Below are positions 1-10,681 of a stretch of DNA of 10,681 nt, piece by piece. The stretch lies in IMG/VR virus record IMGVR_UViG_2671181127_000010, positions 1 to 10,681 of that record. One strand, 5' to 3'. The DNA comes from a virus (taxonomy: Duplodnaviria; Heunggongvirae; Uroviricota; Caudoviricetes). The number at the start of each line of letters is the position of its first letter. Position 1 is the stretch's first letter. The notes beneath the pieces are model-generated. The model was not told where the DNA came from, ran no database searches, and saw only the letters and a program-made list of their open reading frames with translations. The translations under genes were made by a program, and so were the position numbers.

Positions 1-1242
1 ATGGCGAGAAAAACACCCCCATTAACCACAGTGCAGATCAAAGCAGCCAGACCAGCACAAAAGGAGTACACCCTACAGGACGGTGGGGGGCTTTTTCTCC
101 TGGTCAAACCGTCCGGATCAAAACTCTGGAGATTTTCCTACTACCGACCATCGGACAAAAAAAGAATATTACTTAGTTTTGGATCGCTTGATGATGTTTC
201 CCTGGCTGATGCCAGAAAACGCCGTAGCGAGTACAGGGCGTTAATTCTTGCCGGAACTGACCCTCAGGACCACGAGAGGCAAAAACGAGAGGCAGAGGCC
301 AGAAGACAGGGGAATACGTTCGAAAATGTGGCTGCGGCATGGTATCAGGTGAAAATCAGCCAGAATCTTGCACCCAACACGATTAAAGACATCTGGCGAT
401 CGCTGGAGAAATATATATTCCCGTTCATCGGCAACACGCCAATAGATACCCTCACCGCCCGAAGGTTCGTTGAAGTGCTTACCCCCATCAAGGAACGCGG
501 CAACCTGGAAACACTCAAGCGGGTTTTACAGCGCGTTAATGAGGTAATGGATTACGCCGCCAACAGTGGGCTGATTGATGCCAATCCGGCTATGAATGTG
601 CGTAAGGCGTTCCCCTCCCCTGTAAAAAAACATATGCCAACAATCAGGCCCGAGCAGTTGCCGGAACTTATGCAGGCTTTATCCGTATCGGCAACAGAAC
701 GGCAAACCAGGCTACTTATTGAGTGGCAGCTACTGACCGTAACCCGTCCAGTTGAAGCATCGTCGGCACGCTGGGAAGAAATCGACATGGAGGCGCAACG
801 CTGGACCATACCCGCCGGACGCATGAAGATGCGCCGCGACCACGTTATCCCGCTTTGTGACCAGGCTATGGCAGTGCTGGAGGCTATGAAACCAATCAGC
901 CACCACCGCGATTATGTTTTCCCGAGTCTGAAAGACCCACAGCAGCCGATGAACAGCCAGACCGCTAACGCAGCATTACGACGCATGGGGTTCGCTGGCG
1001 TGCTGGTGTCTCATGGATTACGCGCCATATTCAGCACAGCAGCGAACGAGGAAGGATTCGAGCCGGACGTAATAGAGGCGGCACTTGCCCACGTCGACAC
1101 CAACGAAGTTAGACGGGCATACAACCGGAGCAACTACATAGAAAAACGCATCGTGCTGATGCGCTGGTGGGGCGAATTTGTCGAGGCTGCGGCGACGGGC
1201 GTAACCCTCGCCAGTGGTAAAAGGGGTATCCGAGCCGTGTAG
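1..1242 (+). CDS. int: Tyrosine recombinase / integrase, P4-family (413 aa)
   Basis: Full ORF from window position 1. N-terminus LFLLVKPSGSKLWRFSYY resembles the P4-type integrase N-terminal domain; C-terminal catalytic-type motifs HGLRAIFST and a terminal Tyr region (RAYNRSNY). Followed by alpA, the typical satellite arrangement. Confidence 0.9.
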   Translation: MARKTPPLTTVQIKAARPAQKEYTLQDGGGLFLLVKPSGSKLWRFSYYRPSDKKRILLSFGSLDDVSLADARKRRSEYRALILAGTDPQDHERQKREAEARRQGNTFENVAAAWYQVKISQNLAPNTIKDIWRSLEKYIFPFIGNTPIDTLTARRFVEVLTPIKERGNLETLKRVLQRVNEVMDYAANSGLIDANPAMNVRKAFPSPVKKHMPTIRPEQLPELMQALSVSATERQTRLLIEWQLLTVTRPVEASSARWEEIDMEAQRWTIPAGRMKMRRDHVIPLCDQAMAVLEAMKPISHHRDYVFPSLKDPQQPMNSQTANAALRRMGFAGVLVSHGLRAIFSTAANEEGFEPDVIEAALAHVDTNEVRRAYNRSNYIEKRIVLMRWWGEFVEAAATGVTLASGKRGIRAV

Positions 1243-1319
1243 CTGTACAGAAAACCAGTAAAAACTACGAAAACCATGTAAAACCGTCGTATAATTGCAT
1301 CAAATTTAACGACAAGGCC

Positions 1320-1571
1320 GTGAAACATGAAACCGTTAAGATGCAAAAAAATATCAGATGCAATTGCGACGGGCTGCAACTGGCCCTGATGGTTCAGCAT
1401 GAATTTTGGTCAACCTACGATCCGGAGGACAGAACGACGGCCCCATCAAAAAAACAGGTAGTAGATTTTCTGGTATCCCGTGGCGCTTCCAGAAATCTGG
1501 CGGTAAGTATTGATAAGGTCGTACGTCCGGCATCTATGAAGATCGGAGGCAGGCCCAAAAAATGGCGGTAA
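1320..1571 (+). CDS. Hypothetical small protein (83 aa from GTG 1320; in-frame ATG at 1341)
   Basis: ORF between int and alpA, ends 10 bp before a clean intrinsic terminator; weak RBS, start uncertain; no recognisable motif. Confidence 0.3.
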   Translation: MKHETVKMQKNIRCNCDGLQLALMVQHEFWSTYDPEDRTTAPSKKQVVDFLVSRGASRNLAVSIDKVVRPASMKIGGRPKKWR

Positions 1572-1581
1572 CAATCCTGGA

Positions 1582-1606
1582 AGCGGCAGAAATGCCGCTT
1601 TTTTTA
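1582..1606 (+). terminator. Rho-independent terminator (AGCGGCA-gaaa-TGCCGCT plus T-run)
   Basis: Perfect 7-bp stem, 4-nt loop, followed by 8 T residues. Confidence 0.6.
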
Positions 1607-1632
1607 TAATTCCATTTCAAATCATCAATATA

Positions 1633-1720
1633 AAAAACGGTGTATACCGTTTAAAAACGGTGGGAACTGTTTTTACCCATATCCGATGATTTACCGTATT
1701 TGTCACCGGAATACACCGGA
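1633..1720. promoter_or_regulatory. Repeat-containing region upstream of alpA (candidate promoter/operator)
   Basis: Direct repeat AAAAACGGTG at 1633-1642 and 1653-1662 (20-bp phasing); small palindrome ACGGT-gtat-ACCGT at 1637-1650; tandem CACCGGA at 1704-1710 and 1714-1720. Confidence 0.3.
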
Positions 1721-1738
1721 TTCACAAGGTAAATCACG

Positions 1739-1945
1739 ATGGAAGCAATCAGAAAAATTATCTTTCGCCAGGAAGTAAAAAAAATTATCCACATCAAGGC
1801 AGACAGCACGCTGCAAAGCATGATCAACGCCGGAGAATTTCCGCAGGGTTTTCGCGTTGGTTTACGCCGTCGCGGATGGTATGAGGATGATGTGTTGGCC
1901 TGGCAGAAAGAACGCGAACAGGAAGCACGCGGAACGGCTGCTTAA
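1739..1945 (+). CDS. alpA: AlpA-family (prophage CP4-57 regulatory, Vis-like) small DNA-binding regulator, 68 aa
   Basis: Size, position downstream of a P4-family integrase, and motif FRQEV...GEFPQGFRVGLRRRGWYEDDVLAW matching the AlpA pattern (RLPEV...GxFP.P.KLG.R...W...V..W). RBS AAGG 9 nt upstream. Confidence 0.75.
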   Translation: MEAIRKIIFRQEVKKIIHIKADSTLQSMINAGEFPQGFRVGLRRRGWYEDDVLAWQKEREQEARGTAA

Positions 1946-2093
1946 CGGGTATCACAGATATGACAAACACGAAAAAAGCGGCCCCGATATGGAGCCGCCT
2001 TTCTGAACAATTAACCCGCTGCGCCTTATGTGTATATGATCCCAAACATAAGCACGGGGATGATAGCCGCTATCAGGCTGGTGGGCAATGCAA

Positions 2094-2282
2094 TCAGTCT
2101 GGTTCAGTTCGTTGCCATACCTGCAATGAGCGCGTTTCCCTGTACTCTTTAAGGAATTGCTCAAGGGCAAAAGCACATGGCGCGAATCTTTCTGATTCAT
2201 GCTCTATCTTTCTGCGCCGTCTTTTCCGTGCCGGTGATAATGTTTTGGTCAATTCTTTATCGGTCATTGTGTTGTCCTGCAT
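2094..2282 (-). CDS. Hypothetical small basic protein (62 aa; alternative start at 2267)
   Basis: ORF downstream of the RHH gene on the same strand; contains an RRRRK run; weak RBS. Low support. Confidence 0.2.
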   Translation of the reverse strand: MQDNTMTDKELTKTLSPARKRRRRKIEHESERFAPCAFALEQFLKEYRETRSLQVWQRTEPD

Positions 2283-2324
2283 AGCAATGCGCCGTAATAC
2301 CTTACACCACGGCGCTGATGGTGA

Positions 2325-2630
2325 TTACTCTGGTTCTTTGGTCTTGCGGCGCTGGAGTTCTTCACGTGCGACAGTGACGAGCTGCCCGATCTCCTCGGCG
2401 GCTTTGATTCCGAGTTTTTCCACCTGCGCCAGTGCATCGAGCGAAGAAACTAGGGGATTTTCTCCACTTCCTTCTGCCTGGCGCCGGGCGATCTCACCGC
2501 GTACAGCCGTAACTATAAAATTCGCTTTAGTTTCCCCTGGCTGTAGGGATGCCTCAATGCCACTCACTACTTCATGTGGAAATCTGGCATTCAGTTGCTG
2601 TGACTTATTGTTAACAGAACTCCTGGACAT
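2325..2630 (-). CDS. Ribbon-helix-helix (Arc/Mnt-like) DNA-binding protein, 101 aa; candidate master repressor of the island
   Basis: Start ATG at 2630-2628 (minus) preceded by strong RBS GGAGGTG. N-terminus QQLNARFPHEVVSGIEASLQPGETKANFIVTAV fits the Arc/Mnt RHH pattern (hN.R.P.EV...A...G.S.N..I...V). Divergent from the Ash operon across an operator-bearing intergenic region. The long ORF-track version (2325..2810) is an N-terminal over-extension. Confidence 0.65.
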   Translation of the reverse strand: MSRSSVNNKSQQLNARFPHEVVSGIEASLQPGETKANFIVTAVRGEIARRQAEGSGENPLVSSLDALAQVEKLGIKAAEEIGQLVTVAREELQRRKTKEPE

Positions 2631-2660
2631 GTTTGCACCTCCCATTAATAACGGGATGCA

Positions 2661-2727
2661 GTGTAATACAAAAGTGAATACCAAAAAAGACTTGAAATGG
2701 TATTCACCTAAATGTAATGTGAATACC
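2661..2727. promoter_or_regulatory. Operator array in divergent promoter region (9-bp inverted repeats GTGAATACC / GGTATTCAC)
   Basis: GTGAATACC at 2674-2682 and 2719-2727, GGTATTCAC at 2699-2707; TGTAAT immediately 5' of sites at 2662-2667 and 2713-2718; possible -35 TTGAAA at 2692-2697 lying inside the first inverted repeat. Confidence 0.55.
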
Positions 2728-2765
2728 ACAAGTGCTGATACATGCAATTCAGCAATTGAAACGAC

Positions 2766-2800
2766 GAAGCCCCGCACTGTTGGAGCAGTAACGGGGCTTC
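2766..2800 (+). other. Stem-loop in the 5' leader of the Ash operon (GAAGCCCCG ... CGGGGCTTC)
   Basis: Perfect 9-bp GC-rich inverted repeat with 17-nt loop, 28 bp upstream of the 2829 start codon; no T-run, so not a canonical terminator. Confidence 0.3.
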
Positions 2801-2828
2801 TAACCAACAACGTAAACTAGGAGCCGTT

Positions 2829-3386
2829 ATGGTTGCTGTAAATCATATACCACACCTTGTACACACACAAACGGCCTTTGTGTGGCGTTTTCTGGCCCTG
2901 AATATCGGAGAAAAAAACCGCTTGATCGCCACCAGCAAAAATGGCTATGATTCCCGCGCACCTCATAAAACGGGTGTCGGGATTAGCCTCCTGAAAACAA
3001 CTGAAGCGCACAGCACGCGCCCTGCGTGTTTTTTTGTGCCGCATAGTCACACCTTATCAATGGTGGGCTGTACGGGGGCGGAGCAATCCGCGCCGGTTTC
3101 TTCAGTGTCCGGTAAGGCTAACCCTGTACAGTCCGCCACCAGCGAAATTAGCCTTTTGCGTGGCGGTTATCTTAACCACACTGAGGAGGCTGCCAACATG
3201 GCTACTATCCCTACCCTTGTACATTCTCAAACCGCATTTATCTGGCGCTTTATCATCTTTGGCGCGTCAGAATCTCAAATCATCCACGTAACCGCCTGGA
3301 CGGAACGCGAAGCGCGTAGCCGTTGCCCGTCAGGTTGTGTTGCTGTATTCGCCGCCCGTATTCGTCAGGGGTCACATCATGCGTAA
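2829..3386 (+). CDS. Ash-family-like protein with C-terminal Icd-like domain (185 aa)
   Basis: RBS TAGGAG 6 nt upstream of ATG. Contains two copies of the motif VH.QTAF.WRF and a C-terminal TEREAR...VFAARIRQG block, which I recall as the signature of Ash / Icd-like small proteins of P4-type islands (family name from memory, not verified). Confidence 0.55.
   Translation: MVAVNHIPHLVHTQTAFVWRFLALNIGEKNRLIATSKNGYDSRAPHKTGVGISLLKTTEAHSTRPACFFVPHSHTLSMVGCTGAEQSAPVSSVSGKANPVQSATSEISLLRGGYLNHTEEAANMATIPTLVHSQTAFIWRFIIFGASESQIIHVTAWTEREARSRCPSGCVAVFAARIRQGSHHA
3198..3386 (+). CDS. Icd-like small protein, 62 aa: in-frame internal start inside the 2829..3386 ORF
   Basis: Strong RBS GAGGAGG 7 nt upstream of internal ATG 3198; product MATIPTLVHSQTAFIWRF...TEREARSR...VFAARIRQG is a complete Icd-like unit. 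Could be a separately translated nested product. Confidence 0.4.
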   Translation: MATIPTLVHSQTAFIWRFIIFGASESQIIHVTAWTEREARSRCPSGCVAVFAARIRQGSHHA

Positions 3387-3843
3387 AAACCGCTTGCAAA
3401 AAATTATAACGGGGCTGTATGCTTCCCCAGTCGCCCACATGGCGACCGGGTTTAGCAGCCTGAATACTACAGCGGACAGCCGCTTACATTCCGATATGCG
3501 GTTTTTTTGTGTCCGTAAACCTACCCATACCCGCATTATGGCGGGGCGTAACGGGGGAGCCTTTGCGCTCGCTGGTTCCTGTAGTGCCAGTCTGCTAACC
3601 CTGTTACGTCTCGCCACCCCGTTTAGCAGCGTAGTAGCGAGACTCCTTAATTTCACTACAGGAGCCTTTCACATGGCTGTATTCACACGCCCTTATTTTG
3701 TCTGGCGCTTTATGCAGTGCCACCACAGCAGCATTGATATTTACACCGTTACCGCAGCCACTGAACGCGAAGCCCGCGCCCAGTTGCCGCACGCACATCT
3801 GATTTTTGTCGCCCGTATTCGTCAGGGGGTGTGCCATGCCTGA
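3379..3843 (+). CDS. Ash-family-like paralog with C-terminal Icd-like domain (154 aa from ATG 3379)
   Basis: Motifs FFCVRKPTHTRIMAG (paralogous to CFFVPHSHTLSMVG in the upstream gene) and YFVWRF...TEREARAQ...IFVARIRQG. Start 3379 overlaps the upstream stop by 8 nt; the ORF-track start 3337 is probably an over-extension. Confidence 0.55.
   Translation: MRKNRLQKIITGLYASPVAHMATGFSSLNTTADSRLHSDMRFFCVRKPTHTRIMAGRNGGAFALAGSCSASLLTLLRLATPFSSVVARLLNFTTGAFHMAVFTRPYFVWRFMQCHHSSIDIYTVTAATEREARAQLPHAHLIFVARIRQGVCHA
3673..3843 (+). CDS. Icd-like small protein, 56 aa: in-frame internal start inside the 3379..3843 ORF
   Basis: RBS CAGGAG 8 nt upstream of ATG 3673; product MAVFTRPYFVWRF...TEREARAQ...VARIRQG. 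Confidence 0.35.
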   Translation: MAVFTRPYFVWRFMQCHHSSIDIYTVTAATEREARAQLPHAHLIFVARIRQGVCHA

Positions 3844-4156
3844 TATGTCAAATTACCAGTACCTGATTAATCCGCATTTTAAGTGTGATCATGATATTGC
3901 TAAGAAGGTTTATTCCGCTGCTTATGGGGCTACTGACAATATATCAATGGGTATTGCGTCAATTGGTAGCCTGATGTGGTATGCGTCAGAAAATAAGGAA
4001 TATGACGAAAAGGCCATGCGCATTGATATGGGTAATATCGGTTTGTTACTGGCAATGCTTGGGCAGTTTGATATTTCGTTACGGTGCACCATTGAAAATG
4101 CCAAAGATGCATTAAATGCTATAAAGAAAGCGAATACTGATTTAAATCGGGGATAA
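3836..4156 (+). CDS. Hypothetical protein, 106 aa, AT-rich cargo-like gene
   Basis: ATG 3836 with RBS GGGGGTG, overlaps upstream stop (ATGCCTGA). About 35% GC in the first 60 nt versus clearly more GC-rich flanking genes. No recognisable motif. Confidence 0.55.
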   Translation: MPDMSNYQYLINPHFKCDHDIAKKVYSAAYGATDNISMGIASIGSLMWYASENKEYDEKAMRIDMGNIGLLLAMLGQFDISLRCTIENAKDALNAIKKANTDLNRG

Positions 4157-4162
4157 ATAATC

Positions 4163-4462
4163 ATGAGAACATATTTATCTGGCTTGACTGCCAGCGGCCC
4201 CGCTCGGCCTGAAATCCGCCCCGGAGATATTTTCAGAGATAACTACGGTGGCGTTGTTGAGATTAAAGGCGTGGCAGAACGGCGCATTACCTACCGCCGT
4301 GAAGGCTACGAATATGATTGCGTGATGCCTGTTTATCAGTTCCGGCGTGATTTTTCTCTGGTACAGGCAGCGCCCCGCAGTAAACCAACCAGCAGGGAGA
4401 AAGCACGCGCCAATATTCAGGAAATAAGAAAGATGTTGAATGTATTCAGGGGTAAAAAATGA
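4163..4462 (+). CDS. Hypothetical protein, 99 aa, immediately upstream of and coupled to the primase
   Basis: ATG 4163; stop overlaps primase start (ATGA at 4459-4462). Basic C-terminus. Function unknown. Confidence 0.55.
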   Translation: MRTYLSGLTASGPARPEIRPGDIFRDNYGGVVEIKGVAERRITYRREGYEYDCVMPVYQFRRDFSLVQAAPRSKPTSREKARANIQEIRKMLNVFRGKK

Positions 4463-6207
4463 AACTGGCACCGAACGTAAAAAAACAACCACGCGGAATA
4501 AAACACAAAGACACAGAGGTAATTATTTTCGCGGGTAGTGATGCGTGGGCACATGCAAAACAGTGGCAGGAGCAGGACGGCCCCGCATCCGGCGATAATG
4601 TGCCGCCTGTGTGGCTTGGGCCAAATCAGCTTGCCGAACTTGATGCACTGAAAATTGTTCCTGATGGAAAAAAACGCGTAAGGCTGTACCAGGCCGGAGA
4701 ACTGGATTTGGTGGAGACCAAAAAGATTGGTCAGAAGCTGGCGGCGGCAGATATTCAGGACGCAAATTTTTACCCCGAAGGAATGCACGTCCAGAAGTGT
4801 GAAAACTGGCGGCGCTATCTGAATGCTGAGCGTGAAAATATTGCCGCAGGGCTTACCATGCCGGAGCAGAAAAATACGCAACTGGCACAAATGGCAGACA
4901 GTGAGCGCGCGCAGCTGCTTGCCGAGCGCTTTGATGGCGTTTGTGTGCATCCGGAAAGTGAAATCGTTCACGTATGGCGCGGCGGGGTATGGTGTCCGGT
5001 CAGCACAATGGAACTTAGCCGCGAAATGGTGGCGATCTATTCAGAGCACAGGGCCACTTTCAGCAAGCGCGTAATCAATAACGCCGTGGAAGCGTTAAAA
5101 GTTATTGCCGAACCAATGGGCGAGCCGTCCGGCGATTTGTTGCCGTTCGCCAATGGTGCGCTTGACCTGAAAACGGGGGAATTTTCCCCGCACACGCCGG
5201 AGAACTGGATCACCACGCACAACGGCATTGAGTACACGCCACCAGCACCAGGGGAGAATATCTGCGACAACGCGCCAAACTTTCATAAATGGCTTGAGCA
5301 CGCAGCCGGAAAAGACCCGCGCAAGATGATGCGTATATGTGCCGCGCTGTACATGATTATGGCGAACCGGTACGACTGGCAGATGTTTATTGAGGCCACC
5401 GGAGAGGGCGGTAGCGGTAAAAGTACATTCACGCACATAGCCAGCCTTCTGGCAGGGAAACAGAACACGGTAAGCGCTGAAATGACCTCACTTGATGATG
5501 CTGGTGGACGTGCGCAGGTTGTCGGGAGTCGTCTTATCGTCCTGGCTGACCAGCCGAAATATACAGGCGAAGGAACGGGCATCAAGAAAATCACGGGCGG
5601 CGACCCCGTGGAAATAAACCCGAAATATGAGAAGCGTTTTACGGCGGTAATCAGGGCGGTGGTGCTGGCTACCAACAATAACCCGATGATATTCACCGAG
5701 CGGGCCGGAGGTGTGTCACGCCGTCGGGTGATTTTCCGGTTCGACAACATTGTAAGGGAGGACGAAAAAGACAAGGATTTGCCGGAGAAGGTCGCGGCTG
5801 AAATCCCCGTAATTATCCGTCGCTTGCTGGCTAATTTTGCCGACCCTGAAAAGGCACGGGCTTTATTACTGGAACAGCGCGACGGTGATGAAGCTCTGGC
5901 AATAAAGCAACAGACGGATCCGGTTATTGAGTTTTGCCAGTTCCTGAATTTTCTGGAGGAAGCACGCGGCCTGATGATGGGCGGCGGTGGCGATTCAGTG
6001 AAGTACACGACCAGAAACAGCCTTTACCGCGTCTATCTGGCGTTTATGGCATACGCAGGCAGGAGCAAACCGCTAAACGTGGCTGAGTTCAGCAAGGCCA
6101 TGAAGACAGCGGCAAAAGTTTACGGACATGAATATATTACGCGGAGAGTTAAGGGAGTAACGCAGACCAACGCAATTACAACTGATGATTGTGACGCGTT
6201 TTTATAA
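4459..6207 (+). CDS. Replication protein: primase / D5-type SF3 NTPase (P4 alpha C-terminal-like), 582 aa
   Basis: Walker A GEGGSGKST encoded around 5401-5427 in the D5/P4-alpha-type context (phage/plasmid primase P4-family C-terminal NTPase); RBS AGGGG 7 nt upstream; followed directly by an iteron array. Confidence 0.88.
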   Translation: MKLAPNVKKQPRGIKHKDTEVIIFAGSDAWAHAKQWQEQDGPASGDNVPPVWLGPNQLAELDALKIVPDGKKRVRLYQAGELDLVETKKIGQKLAAADIQDANFYPEGMHVQKCENWRRYLNAERENIAAGLTMPEQKNTQLAQMADSERAQLLAERFDGVCVHPESEIVHVWRGGVWCPVSTMELSREMVAIYSEHRATFSKRVINNAVEALKVIAEPMGEPSGDLLPFANGALDLKTGEFSPHTPENWITTHNGIEYTPPAPGENICDNAPNFHKWLEHAAGKDPRKMMRICAALYMIMANRYDWQMFIEATGEGGSGKSTFTHIASLLAGKQNTVSAEMTSLDDAGGRAQVVGSRLIVLADQPKYTGEGTGIKKITGGDPVEINPKYEKRFTAVIRAVVLATNNNPMIFTERAGGVSRRRVIFRFDNIVREDEKDKDLPEKVAAEIPVIIRRLLANFADPEKARALLLEQRDGDEALAIKQQTDPVIEFCQFLNFLEEARGLMMGGGGDSVKYTTRNSLYRVYLAFMAYAGRSKPLNVAEFSKAMKTAAKVYGHEYITRRVKGVTQTNAITTDDCDAFL

Positions 6208-6219
6208 TTTTTTGTAAAA

Positions 6220-6446
6220 GCCCTCTACCCCATCTACCTGAATGAAATAAACGCATATTATTCAACATGATAAGTGGGTAGAGGGCTAGGTAGAAGGCTA
6301 ATAAAACCTCTCTACCTCTTCTACCATGATTAAGATCGTTTGTGAGGGGCGGGTAGAGGATGGGTAGAGGGCCACGAAAGCCCTCTACCCATCTGAAAGC
6401 CGCGCCATTACTGACATGAAAGATGATTAGGTAGAGAGGTAGAGGA
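6220..6446. repeat. Iteron array / putative replication origin (11 copies of GGTAGAGG / CCTCTACC and variants)
   Basis: Octamer copies at 6222, 6231, 6277, 6289, 6309, 6318, 6352, 6363, 6382, 6430, 6438 in both orientations; perfect 14-bp inverted repeat GATGGGTAGAGGGC (6359-6372) / GCCCTCTACCCATC (6380-6393); AT-rich segment 6239-6275 between repeat clusters. Confidence 0.7.
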
Positions 6447-6493
6447 GGTGCACCACAACCTAAAACTTTTTAAACACGAGGGTAAAAATAAAA

Positions 6494-6772
6494 ATGCACA
6501 CATCAGGAAGATTTAACAAATCACTCAAAAAACGCAAAGACAGAACAGCACCAAGATATAAAGCGCTGGAGATGACAGAGCACGCCTTAAAGGTGGCTAT
6601 AAAGGTGATAGACATCACAGCGGGAGAAGGATACTCGAAAGCACATCCCGAACTAATAAGCGCATTCATGACCACGGCGGCGGCAAACTTTGCCACGCTG
6701 ACAGAGCGGGAGATTGCAGAAGCGGAACAGGTAACAACCATCAACGTTAAAACCGGAGAGGTGGAATCATGA
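6494..6772 (+). CDS. Hypothetical protein, 92 aa
   Basis: ORF directly after the iterons; stop overlaps the SSB start (ATGA at 6769-6772); RBS-like GAGGGT about 11 nt upstream. Confidence 0.5.
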   Translation: MHTSGRFNKSLKKRKDRTAPRYKALEMTEHALKVAIKVIDITAGEGYSKAHPELISAFMTTAAANFATLTEREIAEAEQVTTINVKTGEVES

Positions 6773-7179
6773 CAGCACAGATAGCCGCTTACGGGCGGCT
6801 GGTGGACGACCCGCAGGTAAAACAGACCAGCAAGGGTACACCGATGACGCTGGCGCGTATGGCGGTATCTTTGCCATGTAGTCAGGCGCAGGATGGGCAG
6901 GCGACGTTATGGCTATCGGTCATCGCATTTGGTAAGCAGGCCGACTTCCTGGCTAAACATCAAAAAGGCGACGTTGCCAGCGTATCCGGCACGATGCAGG
7001 TCAGCCAGTGGACCGGACAGAACGGGGAAACGCGGCAGGGTTATCAGGTTATTGCAGACAGCGTAATCAGTGCCCGTGCGGCACGTCCTGGCGGGAACAG
7101 ACGCAAAACCACAGGCACACAGGGTAATCAGCCACCAGCGGGAGACGATGACCCCTACGGTGATGATATTCAGTTCTGA
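6769..7179 (+). CDS. ssb: Single-stranded DNA-binding protein (SSB family), 136 aa
   Basis: N-terminal OB-fold pattern IAAYGRLVDDPQVKQTSKGTPMTLARMAVS and LWLSVIAFGKQADFLA...QVSQWTGQNGETRQGYQV parallels E. coli SSB; Gly/Pro/Gln-rich linker; acidic C-terminal tip DDDPYGDDIQF analogous to the SSB DDDIPF tail. RBS GGAGAGG upstream. Confidence 0.8.
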   Translation: MTAQIAAYGRLVDDPQVKQTSKGTPMTLARMAVSLPCSQAQDGQATLWLSVIAFGKQADFLAKHQKGDVASVSGTMQVSQWTGQNGETRQGYQVIADSVISARAARPGGNRRKTTGTQGNQPPAGDDDPYGDDIQF

Positions 7180-7189
7180 GGGGGTGACG

Positions 7190-7462
7190 ATGGTACATGA
7201 CCGCATAGCGGAGGAACTCGAGGCAAAAGGCTTTTACCGGAGGGCATCGGCGCGATGGGGTGAAGTCATGCTGCTGGTGGAGACAGACAAGGAACGGCAT
7301 CAGGTTACGATGCGACGGCTGGAATGTTCCAGGAAGGCACAGAAGCCACCGGAGCCGCCGGATAACTTCGGAGACCTGAGAAAGGCAGTAGATCGCACTT
7401 ATGCTGAAATGGGTATAGATGGTGTAAGCGATGAAATATGGCGTAATTACCCAGACAGCTAA
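7190..7462 (+). CDS. Hypothetical protein, 90 aa
   Basis: ATG 7190 with RBS GGGGGTGA, 11 nt after the SSB stop; the ORF-track start 7070 overlaps the SSB and is an over-extension. Followed by a terminator. Confidence 0.55.
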   Translation: MVHDRIAEELEAKGFYRRASARWGEVMLLVETDKERHQVTMRRLECSRKAQKPPEPPDNFGDLRKAVDRTYAEMGIDGVSDEIWRNYPDS

Positions 7463-7468
7463 TCAACA

Positions 7469-7490
7469 GCCGGAGTAATCCGGCTTTTTT
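7469..7490 (+). terminator. Rho-independent terminator (GCCGGA-gtaa-TCCGGC plus T6)
   Basis: Perfect 6-bp GC stem, tetraloop, T-run. Confidence 0.7.
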
Positions 7491-7496
7491 GTACCC

Positions 7497-7540
7497 AAAA
7501 AAAGCCCGATAAGTACAGGAGGCATCTTATCGGGCTTTTG
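7497..7540. terminator. Second hairpin, potentially bidirectional terminator (A-run, GCCCGATAAG ... CTTATCGGGC, T-run)
   Basis: Perfect 10-bp stem at 7504-7513 / 7526-7535, flanked by A7 upstream and T4 downstream. Confidence 0.5.
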
Positions 7541-7573
7541 CATATGAGGTTTTTTTTGGTGCACTGACACACA

Positions 7574-7666
7574 TGATCGGGATCATCATTTCATAATTTG
7601 CAACACAACTCAACATCATTGCATAAAATGCAATCATGATTATAATCAGATCTGGATGAACATCCA
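7574..7666 (+). promoter_or_regulatory. Sigma70-type promoter with overlapping palindromic operators, upstream of the capsid module
   Basis: TTGCAT (7619-7624), 16-bp spacer, TATAAT (7641-7646). Palindromes: TGATCggGATCA 7574-7585; TTGCAT-aaa-ATGCAA 7619-7633 over the -35; TGATTATAATCA 7637-7648 over the -10; CTGGATG-aa-CATCCAG 7651-7666 at the predicted transcript start. Confidence 0.55.
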
Positions 7667-7702
7667 GTTATGATTTTTTAAGTCAAAGAGGAATTTCTTA
7701 CT

Positions 7703-7909
7703 ATGGCTGAAGAGAAAAAAGGCGGTGTTTCGGTGTACATAAGCCCCGACATCGTGAAGGCGCTCAAGGAACGCCACCAGCAGAACGTAAAAGCAGGCAT
7801 TGCGGCAGGACTTGATCCGCTGGCGATGGTTGAGCCGTCAACAGGCTGGCAGGTACGCGCCTATTTACGCGCGGCGCTGGGTATGAATCAGGTTCACGGG
7901 GGTGAATAA
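7703..7909 (+). CDS. Hypothetical small protein, 68 aa, first gene of the capsid module
   Basis: RBS AAGAGGA 10 nt upstream; stop overlaps the capsid gene start (TAATG). VSVYISPDIVKALKERH could be a beta-strand/helix DNA- or protein-binding element; function unknown. Confidence 0.6.
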   Translation: MAEEKKGGVSVYISPDIVKALKERHQQNVKAGIAAGLDPLAMVEPSTGWQVRAYLRAALGMNQVHGGE

Positions 7910-8964
7910 TGACAGTAAAAGCAATAGCACTTAACACTAACCAGCTTTTCGCGTACCTGAATCGCGAGGATATTGCGGAATTTAAATTCAGTCCGCTGTT
8001 TACCGCGCTGTTTTTCCCGAACGTGGCGACATTCAACACACAGGACATCATGTTAGATAACCTGGATATTGAAGAAGTCACTATGTCGGCGTTTTGTTCG
8101 CCTATGGTTGGTAGCCAGGTTCAGCGCGATAAAGGGTACGAAACCAGCATTATTCGCCCTGGCTACATGAAGCCAAAACACGAAATCGATCCATTAAAAA
8201 CAATAATGCGCATGGCTGGAGAAGATCCGGCACAGCTTAACGACCCTACCTACCGCCGTATGCGCCTGATTACTGGCAACATGCGCCGCCAGATAAACGC
8301 CATTAAAGCGCGCGTGGAATGGCTGGCGGTGAATGCGATAACGACCGGAAAAAACATCATTGAGGGCGAAGGCATAGAGCGCTATGAAATCGACTGGAAG
8401 ATACCGGAAAAAAACATCATAGAGCAGGCCGACGGTAAAAAATGGTCAGAGCAGGACAAAGACATACACGACCCAATCTATGACATTGAGCTATACGCAG
8501 ATCAGGCAGGTTGCCCCGCAAACGTCATGATTATGGGCGTTGATGTATGGCGCATGTTACGCAGCTTTAAAAAATTCCGTGAACTGTACGATCTCTCCCG
8601 TGGTTCAGAATCCGCCGCAGAGCTGGCATGTAAAAACCTGGGAGAAGTGGTGAGCTTTAAAGGCTATCTTGGTGATCTGGCCCTTATCGTCTATTCCGGC
8701 AAATACACTGACAGCGACGGCACAGAAAAATATTTCCTTGCGCCTGATTTGCTGGTCCTGGGCAACACCAACAATAAAGGGCTGGTGGCCTATGGTGCGA
8801 TTATGGAACAGGAAGCGGTAAGAACGGGCGCAACGCAAAACATGTTTTACCCGAAAAACTGGATTGAAGACGGCGATCCGGCGATTGAGTACGTGCAGAC
8901 ACACAGCGCGCCGCAGCCTGTTCCGGCAGATATTCGCAAATTTGTTACCGTCAAAATTGGTTAA
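7909..8964 (+). CDS. Major capsid protein, phage lambda gpE family (351 aa)
   Basis: Multiple blocks match my recollection of lambda gpE: FKFSPLFTALFF vs FKFDPLFLRLFF; PGYMKPKHEIDP vs PGYVKPKHEVNP; EDPAQLNDPTYRRMRLITGNMR vs EDPQNLADPAYRRRRIIMQNMR; WSEQDKDIHDPIYDIELYA vs WSKRDKSTYDPTDDIEAYA; YPKNWIEDGDPAIEY..QTHSAP vs YPKNWVTTGDPAREF..IQSAP. Similar length (351 vs 341 aa). Confidence 0.85.
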   Translation: MTVKAIALNTNQLFAYLNREDIAEFKFSPLFTALFFPNVATFNTQDIMLDNLDIEEVTMSAFCSPMVGSQVQRDKGYETSIIRPGYMKPKHEIDPLKTIMRMAGEDPAQLNDPTYRRMRLITGNMRRQINAIKARVEWLAVNAITTGKNIIEGEGIERYEIDWKIPEKNIIEQADGKKWSEQDKDIHDPIYDIELYADQAGCPANVMIMGVDVWRMLRSFKKFRELYDLSRGSESAAELACKNLGEVVSFKGYLGDLALIVYSGKYTDSDGTEKYFLAPDLLVLGNTNNKGLVAYGAIMEQEAVRTGATQNMFYPKNWIEDGDPAIEYVQTHSAPQPVPADIRKFVTVKIG

Positions 8965-8975
8965 CGGTGGATTCT

Positions 8976-9311
8976 ATGAACACTCCATACATTGAGTTAT
9001 TTGCAGGCAGTCAGCAGGTATCAACGACGCTGGTACATTTTGCCGCTGATGCTGGCGTTATTCAGGAATTTACCCCGCTGATGCTGGCGGACAATGGCGA
9101 GTTTAAGCCGTGGGATGGTCAGGAATCTGGCAAGGCTGTTTATCTGACTTCGTATCCTGTGGACACGTCAAAGCAGAAATCAGCACAGTGTTACAAGACG
9201 GGGATATTCAATATTGCCGCCGTTAACTGGCCTGAGAGCGTCGACACCGATGCGAAAAAATGCGCCGCCTTTGCGGGTTCCGGCGTATCCGTTCAGCCGC
9301 TGGCCCGATAA
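8976..9311 (+). CDS. Head decoration protein, lambda gpD-like (111 aa from ATG 8976; alternative GTG start 8967)
   Basis: TPLMLA, WDG, and C-terminal YKTGIFN...VNWPESVDTDAKKCAAFAGSGVSV parallel lambda gpD ([44 protein letters not shown]). RBS GGTGGA 5 nt upstream of ATG 8976. Confidence 0.8.
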   Translation: MNTPYIELFAGSQQVSTTLVHFAADAGVIQEFTPLMLADNGEFKPWDGQESGKAVYLTSYPVDTSKQKSAQCYKTGIFNIAAVNWPESVDTDAKKCAAFAGSGVSVQPLAR

Positions 9312-9323
9312 GCAGGGGGAACG

Positions 9324-9737
9324 ATGGCAACGAATGAAAGCATCATGGCGCTACCGCTGGCGAGTAAATTTAAAGAAGAAGCGCGGGCAATGGCTGACAG
9401 AGGTTTATCAACCTACGAGGCCGTATATCAACTCAACAAACTGGAAGAGCAGGACAAGCCGCGCGCTGATGCGATTATGGCGCTTCATGAGCATAAAGAC
9501 TATCAGCCGCTGTTACGTGCAATGGCAAACGTGCCATGTATTAGCGTCGATAATGCTCGTGAAATCCTGAACATGACCATAGAGCAGGAGCGCCCAAAGG
9601 TTGCACCAGAGCTTACCGCAGCCTTTGAAAACTTTATGGACATGCACAGCCCGCAAGCCGTATCAGCTGGCATGGCATACGATGGCAGAAACCAGGGCGA
9701 TGACGGCGACATCGATCGCATACTGAAAACCATCTGA
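9324..9737 (+). CDS. Hypothetical protein, 137 aa, last gene of the capsid module
   Basis: RBS GGGGGA 5 nt upstream; acidic C-terminus; followed by a terminator and a cos site. No confident motif. Confidence 0.6.
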   Translation: MATNESIMALPLASKFKEEARAMADRGLSTYEAVYQLNKLEEQDKPRADAIMALHEHKDYQPLLRAMANVPCISVDNAREILNMTIEQERPKVAPELTAAFENFMDMHSPQAVSAGMAYDGRNQGDDGDIDRILKTI

Positions 9738-9743
9738 GACAAG

Positions 9744-9767
9744 GCCGGAGAAATCCGGCTTTTTTTT
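9744..9767 (+). terminator. Rho-independent terminator (GCCGGA-gaaa-TCCGGC plus T8)
   Basis: Perfect 6-bp stem, tetraloop, 8 T residues; near-identical to the hairpin at 7469-7490. Confidence 0.7.
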
Positions 9768-9768
9768 A

Positions 9769-9840
9769 CGGGTCCTTTCCGGCATATGGACCCGTTACGG
9801 GGCGGCGACCTCGCGGTTTTTCGCTATTTATGAGATTTTT
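9769..9840 (+). other. Lambda-type cos site, copy L (cosN core GGGCGGCGACCT at 9800-9811, cosB side to the right)
   Basis: 9800-9838 reads GGGCGGCGACCTCGCGGTTTTTCGCTATTTATGAGATTT, close to the lambda genome left end GGGCGGCGACCTCGCGGGTTTTCGCTATTTATGAAAATTTTCCGG. Preceded by a hairpin ACGGGTCC...GGACCCGT. Confidence 0.75.
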
Positions 9841-10187
9841 TGAGGGGGTGGTTGTTGTTTAATTGTTTGGTATATCTAATTGATAAGTAAGGTAAAAATA
9901 AAATAAATACAACAACCTTACGATGTATTTTGATGTCATTAATGTGAAAAAATTCAATGATATCAAATGGTTTTGTAAAAACACATGGTTGTTGTATCGC
10001 GTATTTGATGGCGTAACAGAAAGTGATTTTTAACTTTACCGCTCTGTAACTACGGATTATTCCATGCTGGCACGGAGAACGGCTACGGCATGACGCCACC
10101 CAGCCTATACAGAACAGTAAAGCCGATAAATTGTTAATCACGCGCAGCAATGCGTGTGATTTTTGCACACTTCCGGTTAACTGGTAC

Positions 10188-10286
10188 GATGTCCGGTTTT
10201 AGTGTCTGTTTTTTGCGCATGTCCGGTTCATGGAAAGCATGTTTTTATATTTTTCATATGGTTAACTTGCAGAGAAACCGGACATG
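10188..10286. repeat. Candidate cosB R-type elements for the R cos site (ATGTCCGGTT repeats)
   Basis: ATGTCCGGTT at 10189-10198 and 10219-10228 (direct), inverted copy AACCGGACATG at 10276-10286, partial copy TCCGGTT at 10172-10178; positioned about 40, 100 and 130 bp from the R cosN, resembling the R3/R2/R1 layout of lambda cosB as I recall it. Confidence 0.4.
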
Positions 10287-10292
10287 GATCCC

Positions 10293-10370
10293 GGAAAATT
10301 TTCATAAATAGTGAAAACGCGCGAGGTCGCCGCCCCGTAACGGGCCATAATTCCAGGAAGGACCCGACGA
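10293..10370 (-). other. Lambda-type cos site, copy R (cosN core at 10324-10335 on the minus strand, cosB side to the left)
   Basis: Reverse complement of 10293-10335 reads GGGCGGCGACCTCGCGCGTTTTCACTATTTATGAAAATTTTCCGG, two mismatches from the lambda left-end sequence over 45 nt. Forms a roughly 70-bp imperfect inverted repeat with copy L. Confidence 0.8.
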
Positions 10371-10399
10371 CACCAGACTATCAGAGCGATGGGGGCACA

Positions 10400-10681
10400 A
10401 TGACAGAAGCCGAACTACTGGGATTAATCCGCCGCGTCGCCGGAATCAGCCAGCAGCATGACGAACAGGCCACACAGCCGGACAGCGTGACCGCTGAAAA
10501 TTATGTGCGTGTTGTAGCGGAAGTGATGCGCCGTGATGGTATAGAACTTAATGGCGTTGATATGCGCAACATACGGAACCGCGTTCTTGAAATGCTGGCC
10601 TACAATCGCCGCGTTGAACTGTATCGGGAGAAAGAAAAAATAACGTACCACTGGAAGAAGCCGGAACGGCTGCGGCGGTAA
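10400..10681 (+). CDS. Hypothetical small basic protein, 93 aa, adjacent to the R cos site
   Basis: ATG 10400 with G-rich RBS; the ORF-track extension from 10202 runs through the cos site and is rejected. Ends at the window edge with TAA. Function unknown. Confidence 0.5.
   Translation: MTEAELLGLIRRVAGISQQHDEQATQPDSVTAENYVRVVAEVMRRDGIELNGVDMRNIRNRVLEMLAYNRRVELYREKEKITYHWKKPERLRR

Follow-up and report, generated by a model that had tools for sequence, protein, structure and literature searches.

Which protein, acting at which sites, would hold an enterobacterial phage-inducible chromosomal island (PICI) in check? The global repressor of related E. coli islands is stated as not identified, and induction of E. 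coli PICIs and capsid-forming PICIs (cf-PICIs) needs helper-driven expression of the activator AlpA (PMC6092414; bioRxiv 10.1101/2022.09.08.507074). We addressed this question in the IMG/VR virus record IMGVR_UViG_2671181127_000010, whose positions 1 to 10,681 form the window analyzed here (10,681 bp; all coordinates refer to this whole stretch, with position 1 as its first letter) and whose layout is that of an enterobacterial cf-PICI. Between a leftward gene for a 101-amino-acid YlcI/YnfO-family protein and the rightward replication operon lie three copies of a 10-bp repeat, which we regard, with good confidence short of certainty, as putative operators of that protein on the promoter of the operon.

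A probable operator array on the promoter of the replication operon

The intergenic region and the regulator gene contain the following elements:

2325-2630, minus strand (read from 2630 to 2325): YlcI/YnfO-family regulator, 101 amino acids, with a ribbon-helix-helix (RHH)-like region at residues ~9-55 and a C-terminal helix at residues 59-97
2663-2668, minus strand: TATTAC, the putative -10 of a leftward promoter, P_L; a TATA(A/C/T)T-like element recurs in relatives
2674-2683, plus strand: putative operator O1, GTGAATACCA, 5' of the -35 of P_R, the rightward promoter, and in the putative P_L spacer
2692-2720, plus strand: predicted rightward promoter P_R, with -35 TTGAAA at 2692-2697, a 17-bp spacer and -10 TAATGT at 2715-2720
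2698-2707, minus strand: putative operator O2, TGGTATTCAC on the plus strand, the first 10 bp of the P_R spacer, abutting the -35
2719-2728, plus strand: putative operator O3, GTGAATACCA, covering the predicted start and the last bases of the -10

The repeats had first been described as 9-mers in a sequence-only reading of the window, made without database searches, and both their positions and their spacings of 16 and 11 nt are correct. Each copy in fact grows to 10 bp, leaving the arms 14 and 11 nt apart, and TGGTATTCAC is the reverse complement of GTGAATACCA. The same reading had the repeats overlapping the -35, which does not hold, as TTGAAA at 2692-2697 adjoins O2 and is overlapped by no repeat; O1 begins 18 bp and ends 9 bp 5' of this hexamer. 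There is no other perfect copy of the 10-mer in the window, the closest being a one-mismatch version within the primase gene. When 2631-2828 was shuffled 5000 times with dinucleotide frequencies kept, no shuffle contained a 10-mer in three non-overlapping copies, counting both strands, and 3 shuffles contained a 9-mer in three copies.

P_R is defined by positional conservation across the intergenic regions of 19 related loci, aligned on the regulator start codon, most of which share a TTGACA-like hexamer at ~62, a 17-bp spacer and a TAANNT hexamer. The predicted start in the window is at ~2727. A default promoter scan of the window did not report P_R, because its -10 is weak. In the leftward direction, the relatives share a TATA(A/C/T)T-like element at intergenic positions ~33-38; its minus-strand counterpart here runs from 2668 to 2663, which would place O1 in the spacer of a back-to-back P_L, whose -35 is weak. 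We infer both promoters from this conservation. The sites themselves recur in register with these elements: O1 has its counterpart at intergenic position ~45 in related loci, the O2 position holds a class-specific site in most of 19 tabulated loci (with the 9-mer matching a TG-N5-CA frame in 13 of them), and in nearly all loci examined the counterpart of O2 falls in the part of the P_R spacer next to the -35 and that of O3 on the -10/+1. Several other classes have an additional, fourth site over the -10/+1 of the leftward promoter, and their sites recur every 22 bp, at ~22, 45, 68 and 90.

These positions bear on the sign of control. The RHH protein might bind the sites and yet activate P_R, or regulate it dually, and so be a part of the switch and not the quiescence factor; we consider this improbable. 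The weak -10 and the placement of O1 upstream of the -35, a location typical of activators, would both suit such a role, and dual regulation has precedents among RHH proteins, with Mnt activating Pmnt and AmrZ a subset of promoters. However, O2 in the spacer and O3 on the -10/+1 occupy the classical positions of steric repression, and a lone upstream site is not the conserved feature of these loci.

Slightly less probable again is that the RHH protein is an antitoxin-type autoregulator that works with its downstream neighbor and controls only its own leftward promoter. That neighbor is as follows:

2094-2282, minus strand: basic open reading frame (ORF) of 62 amino acids, downstream of the regulator, with a KRRRRK stretch and a match to PHROG 21027 (function unknown)

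This ORF is probably co-transcribed with the regulator. It is absent in three relatives (L014, L018 and L020) and different in two others (L016 and L005), and L001 has three genes in its place; it therefore looks like a variable cargo position; family-model searches returned no toxin-family match for it. The regulator thus lacks the conserved toxin next door that characterizes type II toxin-antitoxin pairs, and O2 and O3, the best-conserved sites, lie on the rightward promoter.

Repeats follow the N-terminal domain of the regulator

Identification of the binding protein rests on a comparison of loci, seven of which came from a scan of genome contigs, with diversity added by exact-protein look-ups. 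Across 14 specificity variants, the repeat sequence covaries with regulator residues 11-17, and the repeat positions are constant in every locus. The protein is conserved elsewhere; these residues are its single hypervariable block, and an invariant Pro18 stands directly after them. The pairings of strand and repeat include:

QQLNARF, QQINARF/V: GTGAAT(A/C)(C/G)
QQIGARF: GTGAAC
QSLTARI: TGTAAG(A/C)C
QLTTVRV: GTGTTTCA
KQISIRI: TGTGATTCA
QMTTLRV: TGTAT(A/C)TCAC
QVKNVRI, QIKNVRV: TGTG(T/C)ATT
QMKNIRF: GTGTGTAC
QALAARV: TGTGCAACA
QTVAARV (a 59-amino-acid short form): GTGTTNAACAC

Within a class, the repeats stay constant across genera while the DNA between them drifts, as seen for QLTTVRV in E. 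coli, Xenorhabdus and Photorhabdus; the QSLTARI repeats are likewise kept between E. coli and Enterobacter soli despite spacer drift. Counting the O2 core of each class against all intergenic regions gave a block-diagonal pattern by class, with 3-6 copies in loci of the same class and mostly 0-2 elsewhere, at a loose threshold of two mismatches or fewer that admits some noise. The TG-N5-CA symmetry of the sites would suit an arrangement in which the invariant Arg16 of each subunit contacts the outer G and the variable residues read the center.

The mosaic structure of the islands separates the regulator from the other candidate binders. From 1500 to ~2420, no difference separates the window from the E. 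coli locus L002 (100% identity); this stretch covers AlpA (68/68 residues), the 62-amino-acid ORF and the C-terminal half of the regulator. Identity falls to 50-60% across 2500-2740, which holds the N-terminal domain and the operators, and returns to 71-85% in the leader; the integrase end of L002 is also identical, and its repeats are entirely different. L001 and L005 show the reverse: their N-terminal domain and repeats are those of the window, but their AlpA proteins are unrelated, and in L001 a RepA-type helicase replaces the P4 primase. Together, these patterns indicate that the repeats segregate with the N-terminal domain of the regulator and with nothing else on the island, so that neither AlpA nor the integrase nor the replicase can be the specific binder.

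It is thus very unlikely that the repeats bind another island protein, whether as AlpA elements, as integrase or excisionase arm sites or as primase iterons. Such a reading could draw on AlpA being the sole regulator described for such islands (PMC6092414), on the binding of a Pseudomonas AlpA within a promoter (PMC9371919) and on the occurrence of repeats in PICI origins. We rejected AlpA, the integrase and the primase as binders since the repeats do not follow their genes among the loci; the repeats are, moreover, anchored to promoter hexamers and not to an AT-rich origin. The earlier proposal that the divergently encoded protein is the binder is instead well supported, both by the covariation with its strand and by the co-segregation with its N-terminal domain, and the repeats are indeed conserved with the regulator gene in related islands, with class-specific repeats beside each regulator.

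A recombination breakpoint can be placed at ~2420-2520, in the middle of the regulator gene, where a C-terminal half with 90-100% DNA identity to other alleles meets an N-terminal half and operators that are only ~50-60% identical to them. A breakpoint at this position points to an exchange of specificity cassettes and would imply that the N-terminal domain and the operator/promoter segment are swapped jointly among islands as one specificity (immunity) cassette. That the repeats are a product of chance or are neutral, for example functionless remnants of a local duplication, has nothing in its favor beyond the small size of the region, and we consider it negligible given the shuffles above, the class-specific repeats at equivalent positions in 20 loci from at least seven genera, and their retention where the inter-repeat spacers have diverged.

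An RHH-like regulator with a predicted long C-terminal helix

The 101-amino-acid divergent ORF is present as described, preceded by a GGAGG Shine-Dalgarno sequence at 2638-2642, and its homologs begin at the equivalent Met. Residues 9-50 match the NCBIfam YlcI/YnfO model (NF041551; DUF3950) with 60.8 bits against a cutoff of 30. RefSeq relatives of the regulator also carry the YlcI/YnfO annotation, and the PHROGs of this family, 6522 and 949, are labeled 'unknown'. The N-terminal half is an RHH-like fold, with a strand-helix-helix arrangement over ~45 residues. In the family alignment, the variable strand (residues 11-17, QQLNARF) presents Q12-x-N14-x-R16 ahead of the invariant P18, and a G32-E33-(T/S)34 turn with an invariant E33 lies further on; a G-x-(S/T/N) turn combined with alternating polar strand residues is diagnostic for RHH proteins. 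Profile comparisons place the protein at a distance from known members of the fold. The Pfam family PSK_trans_fac, of the RHH clan, matched below threshold (17.5 bits against 28.3), with sub-threshold matches in 28 of 41 members. Alignment with Arc by hhalign gave an E-value of 0.005 at a probability of only 7%, pairing KSQQLNARFPHEVV with Arc SKMPQFNLRWPREVL, and alignment with Mnt, at a probability of 1.1% over 14 aligned columns, did not recover homology. Neither the full-length nor the N-terminal profile found a significant PDB sequence match.

The C-terminal region, residues 59-97, is modeled by AlphaFold2 as one long helix (predicted local distance difference test score ~92), and a marginal C-terminal match to the Hef helix-hairpin-helix (E-value of 0.026) was set aside because the model gives a single helix. 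This half is kept at the DNA level across specificity classes, and its DNA is found in 654 of 5426 complete E. coli genomes. The helix is the obvious candidate for dimer-dimer contacts across two helical turns or for contact with a common partner. A tblastn search found no homolog of the regulator in the phage collection.

A TTG-start extension of the regulator ORF to 161 amino acids (2325-2810, minus strand) and a 173-amino-acid entry, P0001, span the whole promoter/operator region, and both are almost certainly over-long gene calls. Separately, a 7.5-kb sequence labeled Martelella alba (L007) is an enterobacterial-type island fragment, with regulator, operators and Icd leader, under an alphaproteobacterial name, which could be due to contamination or horizontal transfer.

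A proposed mechanism of repression and relief

We propose that RHH dimers would each read one 9-10-bp TG-N5-CA site through the two-stranded ribbon formed by residues 11-17. The C-terminal helices would probably join the dimers, with sites 21-24 bp apart (two turns, on the same DNA face) bound cooperatively. With O2 in the spacer and O3 on the -10/+1, occupancy should exclude RNA polymerase from P_R, and repression of P_R would silence the early operon, comprising the Icd-like genes, the C4 RNAs, DUF4222, the P4-type primase and the single-stranded DNA-binding protein (SSB). O1, within the P_L spacer, would autoregulate the repressor gene.

Two further features bear on relief:

1739-1945, plus strand: AlpA-like gene, lying 5' of the P_R operon in the same orientation
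1972-2004, minus strand: intrinsic terminator of the leftward regulator operon, with a 14-bp stem and a T-run

The most likely route of relief would be transcription that enters from the upstream, helper-activated alpA promoter, which lies outside the repressed P_R. The hairpin at 1972-2004, between the end of alpA and the 62-amino-acid ORF, is a strong terminator for leftward transcription only; on the plus strand it has no good U-run, and transcripts from alpA may therefore pass through. Such AlpA-driven read-through would also interfere with expression of the repressor, whose convergent operon lies between alpA and P_R. Phage P4 offers a likeness for AlpA read-through, in that an upstream late promoter bypasses immunity at P_LE. 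Alternatively, a helper-encoded factor might act on the conserved C-terminal domain. The hypothesis raised by the sequence-only reading, a master repressor switched by a helper anti-repressor, must in either case be reconciled with AlpA.

Several points weigh against an operator array that represses P_R. Its -10, TAATGT, is weak, and the start at ~2727 is a prediction. The class found in the window has three sites and none over the leftward -10/+1, which makes autoregulation less certain here than in the four-site classes. Control of the related islands has been credited to AlpA, with no repressor described (PMC6092414). All functional steps, namely physical binding, repression as the sign of control, C-terminal cooperativity, P_L and the route of relief, come from comparative inference. 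The prototype cf-PICI EcCIEDL933 (L013, from E. coli EDL933), furthermore, has no member of the YlcI/YnfO family. In the same slot, it carries an unannotated 43-amino-acid Arc-like RHH ORF, MRISPELKEQFDKEAQSDGISLANWLKELGRTELKRRGIEPKG (~3212-3343, minus strand of L013), which matches PHROG 228 'Arc-like repressor' with an E-value of 3e-4 and lies under a 744-nt coding sequence annotated as 'hypothetical protein'. This ORF is divergent from the Icd operon, and GTGGTCACCT occurs twice around a TTGACA at 3395-3450. A small divergent RHH regulator may be a general, overlooked feature of such islands.

A possible second layer of control in the leader RNA

The sequence-only reading had also suggested that a stem-loop in the operon leader adds a second layer of control. 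This hairpin is present, conserved and covarying; it lacks a U-run and is therefore no intrinsic terminator. The leader layer proves larger than the stem-loop, as an IsrK-like terminator and two modules of C4 antisense RNA and Icd-like ORF had been missed. These features are:

2766-2800, plus strand: GC-rich leader hairpin with arms GAAGCCCCG (2766-2774) and CGGGGCTTC (2792-2800), at ~+40 to +74 of the P_R transcript
2958-3034, plus strand: IsrK-like element (RF01394, 63.6 bits against a threshold of 50), carrying the a1/b1 boxes for C4 copy 1
3056-3143, plus strand: C4 antisense RNA copy 1 (RF01695, 75.4 bits against 45)
3198-3386, plus strand: Icd-like ORF 1 (NF033153), its Shine-Dalgarno region complementary to a loop of C4 copy 1
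3534-3621, plus strand: C4 antisense RNA copy 2 (RF01695, 72.2 bits against 45), with a different loop specificity
3673-3843, plus strand: Icd-like ORF 2 (NF033153), its Shine-Dalgarno region complementary to a loop of C4 copy 2

All 17 loci compared retain the leader hairpin, and it is also found in ~995 E. coli genomes, whereas the window-type operator segment occurs in only 57. Compensatory changes affect 7 of its 13 pairs, and 85.8% of alignment cells are paired, a level reached in none of 500 shuffles and set against 30-49% for slid controls. Directly 3' of the hairpin stands a near-invariant C(U/A)(A/G/U)AC(C/A) motif, CUAACC in most loci, and after it a small hairpin presents the Shine-Dalgarno sequence. 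In the minimum-free-energy structure predicted for the leader, 2750-2764 is also paired with the start-codon segment at 2826-2842 (z = -3.2). A permissive Rfam scan assigned no family to the leader hairpin, and weak sar and mir matches in the leader were dismissed as chance.

Further downstream, 2958-3843 holds two tandem modules of the P1 immI type (background in PMC8546580; for IsrK, PMC4825925), each in the order a1/b1 boxes, terminator, C4, a2/b2 boxes over a Shine-Dalgarno sequence and Icd-like ORF, and differing in specificity. Each C4 has loops complementary to boxes on its own 5' side and to boxes at the Shine-Dalgarno sequence of the icd that follows it. For copy 1 the boxes are TTAGCC / CACTGAGGA (TTAGCC / ACTGA(A/G)G), and for copy 2 they are TTAGCAG / ACTACAGGA (TTAGCAG / ACTACAG); since these sequences differ, each C4 matches only its own targets. 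Pairing was judged by exact complementary boxes, as RNAduplex energies over whole lengths are crude. The IsrK-like element ends in a strong intrinsic terminator (3034) and gives a sub-threshold match to the c4-a1b1 family of Rfam. Rfam calls isrK for the first module only; the second has boxes at 3452 and 3466, followed at ~3478-3508 by a hairpin that carries a U-run. The target of Icd is FtsZ (PMC11897509). The next ORF, 3836-4156, has no family match, and none of the window ORFs tested carries an Ant, KilA or Bro domain. C4 matches are absent in most relatives that share the RHH/operator module, and this RNA layer is therefore an add-on outside the operator system.

A 185-codon ORF (2829-3386) reads across both the IsrK-like terminator and the first C4 copy and continues into the first genuine Icd-like ORF. 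In RefSeq relatives it is named 'ash family protein' (pseudogene), and its first ~25 codons are Icd-like (HTQTAFVWRF). Rather than a protein, it seems to be a scar of recombination or an artifact of annotation over RNA genes.

Layout of the island

The gene order of the window is int, alpA, the leftward 62-amino-acid ORF and RHH gene, and then P_R driving icd and on through primase, SSB and capsid genes. The remaining features that define the island are:

1-1242, on the strand opposite the regulator: tyrosine integrase
4459-6207, plus strand: P4-family primase/helicase, the replication gene of the P_R operon
6769-7179: SSB, 3' of the primase
7223-7462: PerC-like 'transcriptional activator' ORF
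7909-9311: major capsid and head decoration proteins, which fit a capsid-forming island

The rightward string thus runs from the Icd-like ORFs through DUF4222, the P4-family primase/helicase, SSB and the PerC-like activator to the major capsid and decoration proteins. Because this is an island-type layout, 'replication operon' is a fair label for the rightward unit. RefSeq relatives lie at typical island sites, beside roxA or tRNA-Pro. A PerC-family protein from another E. coli PICI is reported to repress the locus of enterocyte effacement (PMC11773190).

Implications for island quiescence

The YlcI/YnfO family is a protein family without an assigned function, present across Enterobacterales, and it now supplies a testable candidate for the repressor of Gram-negative islands. 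It also appears to have a readable recognition code, in which strand residues 12, 14 and 16 would correspond to TG-N5-CA sites. No paper in the literature we searched links PICIs with an RHH regulator, and later cf-PICI work invokes AlpA only. The family, its specificity code and its possible repressor role are absent from that literature, and the promoter-covering mechanism is conventional.

Tentatively, and with distinctly less confidence than in the operator assignment, we suggest a broader model. The long-form YlcI/YnfO proteins, together with unrelated small RHH proteins such as the 43-amino-acid ORF of EcCIEDL933, could be the missing quiescence repressors of enterobacterial PICIs and cf-PICIs. 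Their strands and operators could form at least a dozen exchangeable cassettes that define hetero-immune groups. The requirement for AlpA could then reflect a bypass of repression, either by read-through from P_alpA or by a factor that targets the C-terminal domain. Confirmation of the repressor role of the family would explain the silence of the islands, define immunity groups among co-resident satellites and supply a set of orthogonal small repressor/operator pairs.

Comparison with known systems

In the comparison with the YlcI/YnfO family of lambdoid prophages, the N-terminal 42 residues of the regulator score above the cutoff of the family model, and K-12 YnfO shares with the regulator an N-x-R-F-P ... 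G-S-G-N-F-S pattern. K-12 YnfO differs in being shorter and in lying beside nohA/ydfO, where inspection found no comparable repeat array upstream.

The rightward unit resembles P1 immI (Op51/C1, c4, icd, ant), in which a protein-controlled promoter is followed by C4 RNA with a/b boxes over the icd ribosome-binding site. It differs in that the promoter-proximal regulator is the RHH protein of the island and not P1 C1, and in having two tandem C4/icd modules of different specificity and no recognized ant gene. Its likeness to the satellite P4, whose immunity is by CI RNA, extends to the P4-type primase, the AlpA/Vis-like gene and an upstream, co-oriented promoter.

The resemblance to the immI region of P22, with its divergent Pmnt/Pant promoters, is closer at the level of the operator. 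As with Mnt and Arc, a small divergent RHH repressor gene faces an operator that overlaps the promoter of the opposing operon, and an antisense RNA is encoded in the equivalent region (sar in P22, C4 in the window). The strand motif xNxRxPxEV is similar, and, like Mnt, the regulator combines an N-terminal RHH domain with a C-terminal helical region, which serves oligomerization in Mnt and is a predicted helix here. Sequence homology of Arc and Mnt with the regulator is, however, not significant. P22 has one compact 17-21-bp operator, whereas the island loci have 3-4 separate 10-bp subsites ~22 bp apart. The operon in the window, moreover, encodes replication and Icd-like genes with no identified ant, in a satellite island and not a phage. 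The arrays of short, oriented subsites are also reminiscent of the omega repressor (pSM19035/inc18), although the omega heptads are contiguous and the window sites lie two helical turns apart, and omega lacks the long C-terminal helix and has a different genetic context.

By position, the regulator compares with Stl of the Staphylococcus aureus pathogenicity islands (SaPIs) and with Rpr of Gram-positive PICIs, both master repressors whose genes are likewise divergent from the excision/replication operon of a phage-inducible island and whose specificity likewise varies among alleles. The fold differs, being helix-turn-helix in Stl and Rpr and RHH-like in the window protein. Their int genes share the side and orientation of the repressor, whereas int and alpA of the window lie on the opposite strand. 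Their derepression by helper proteins has been demonstrated, whereas the published inducer of Gram-negative islands is AlpA (PMC6092414). Collectively, the closest functional parallels to the window are Mnt and Arc at P22 immI and the omega arrays, and the closest positional parallels are SaPI Stl and PICI Rpr.

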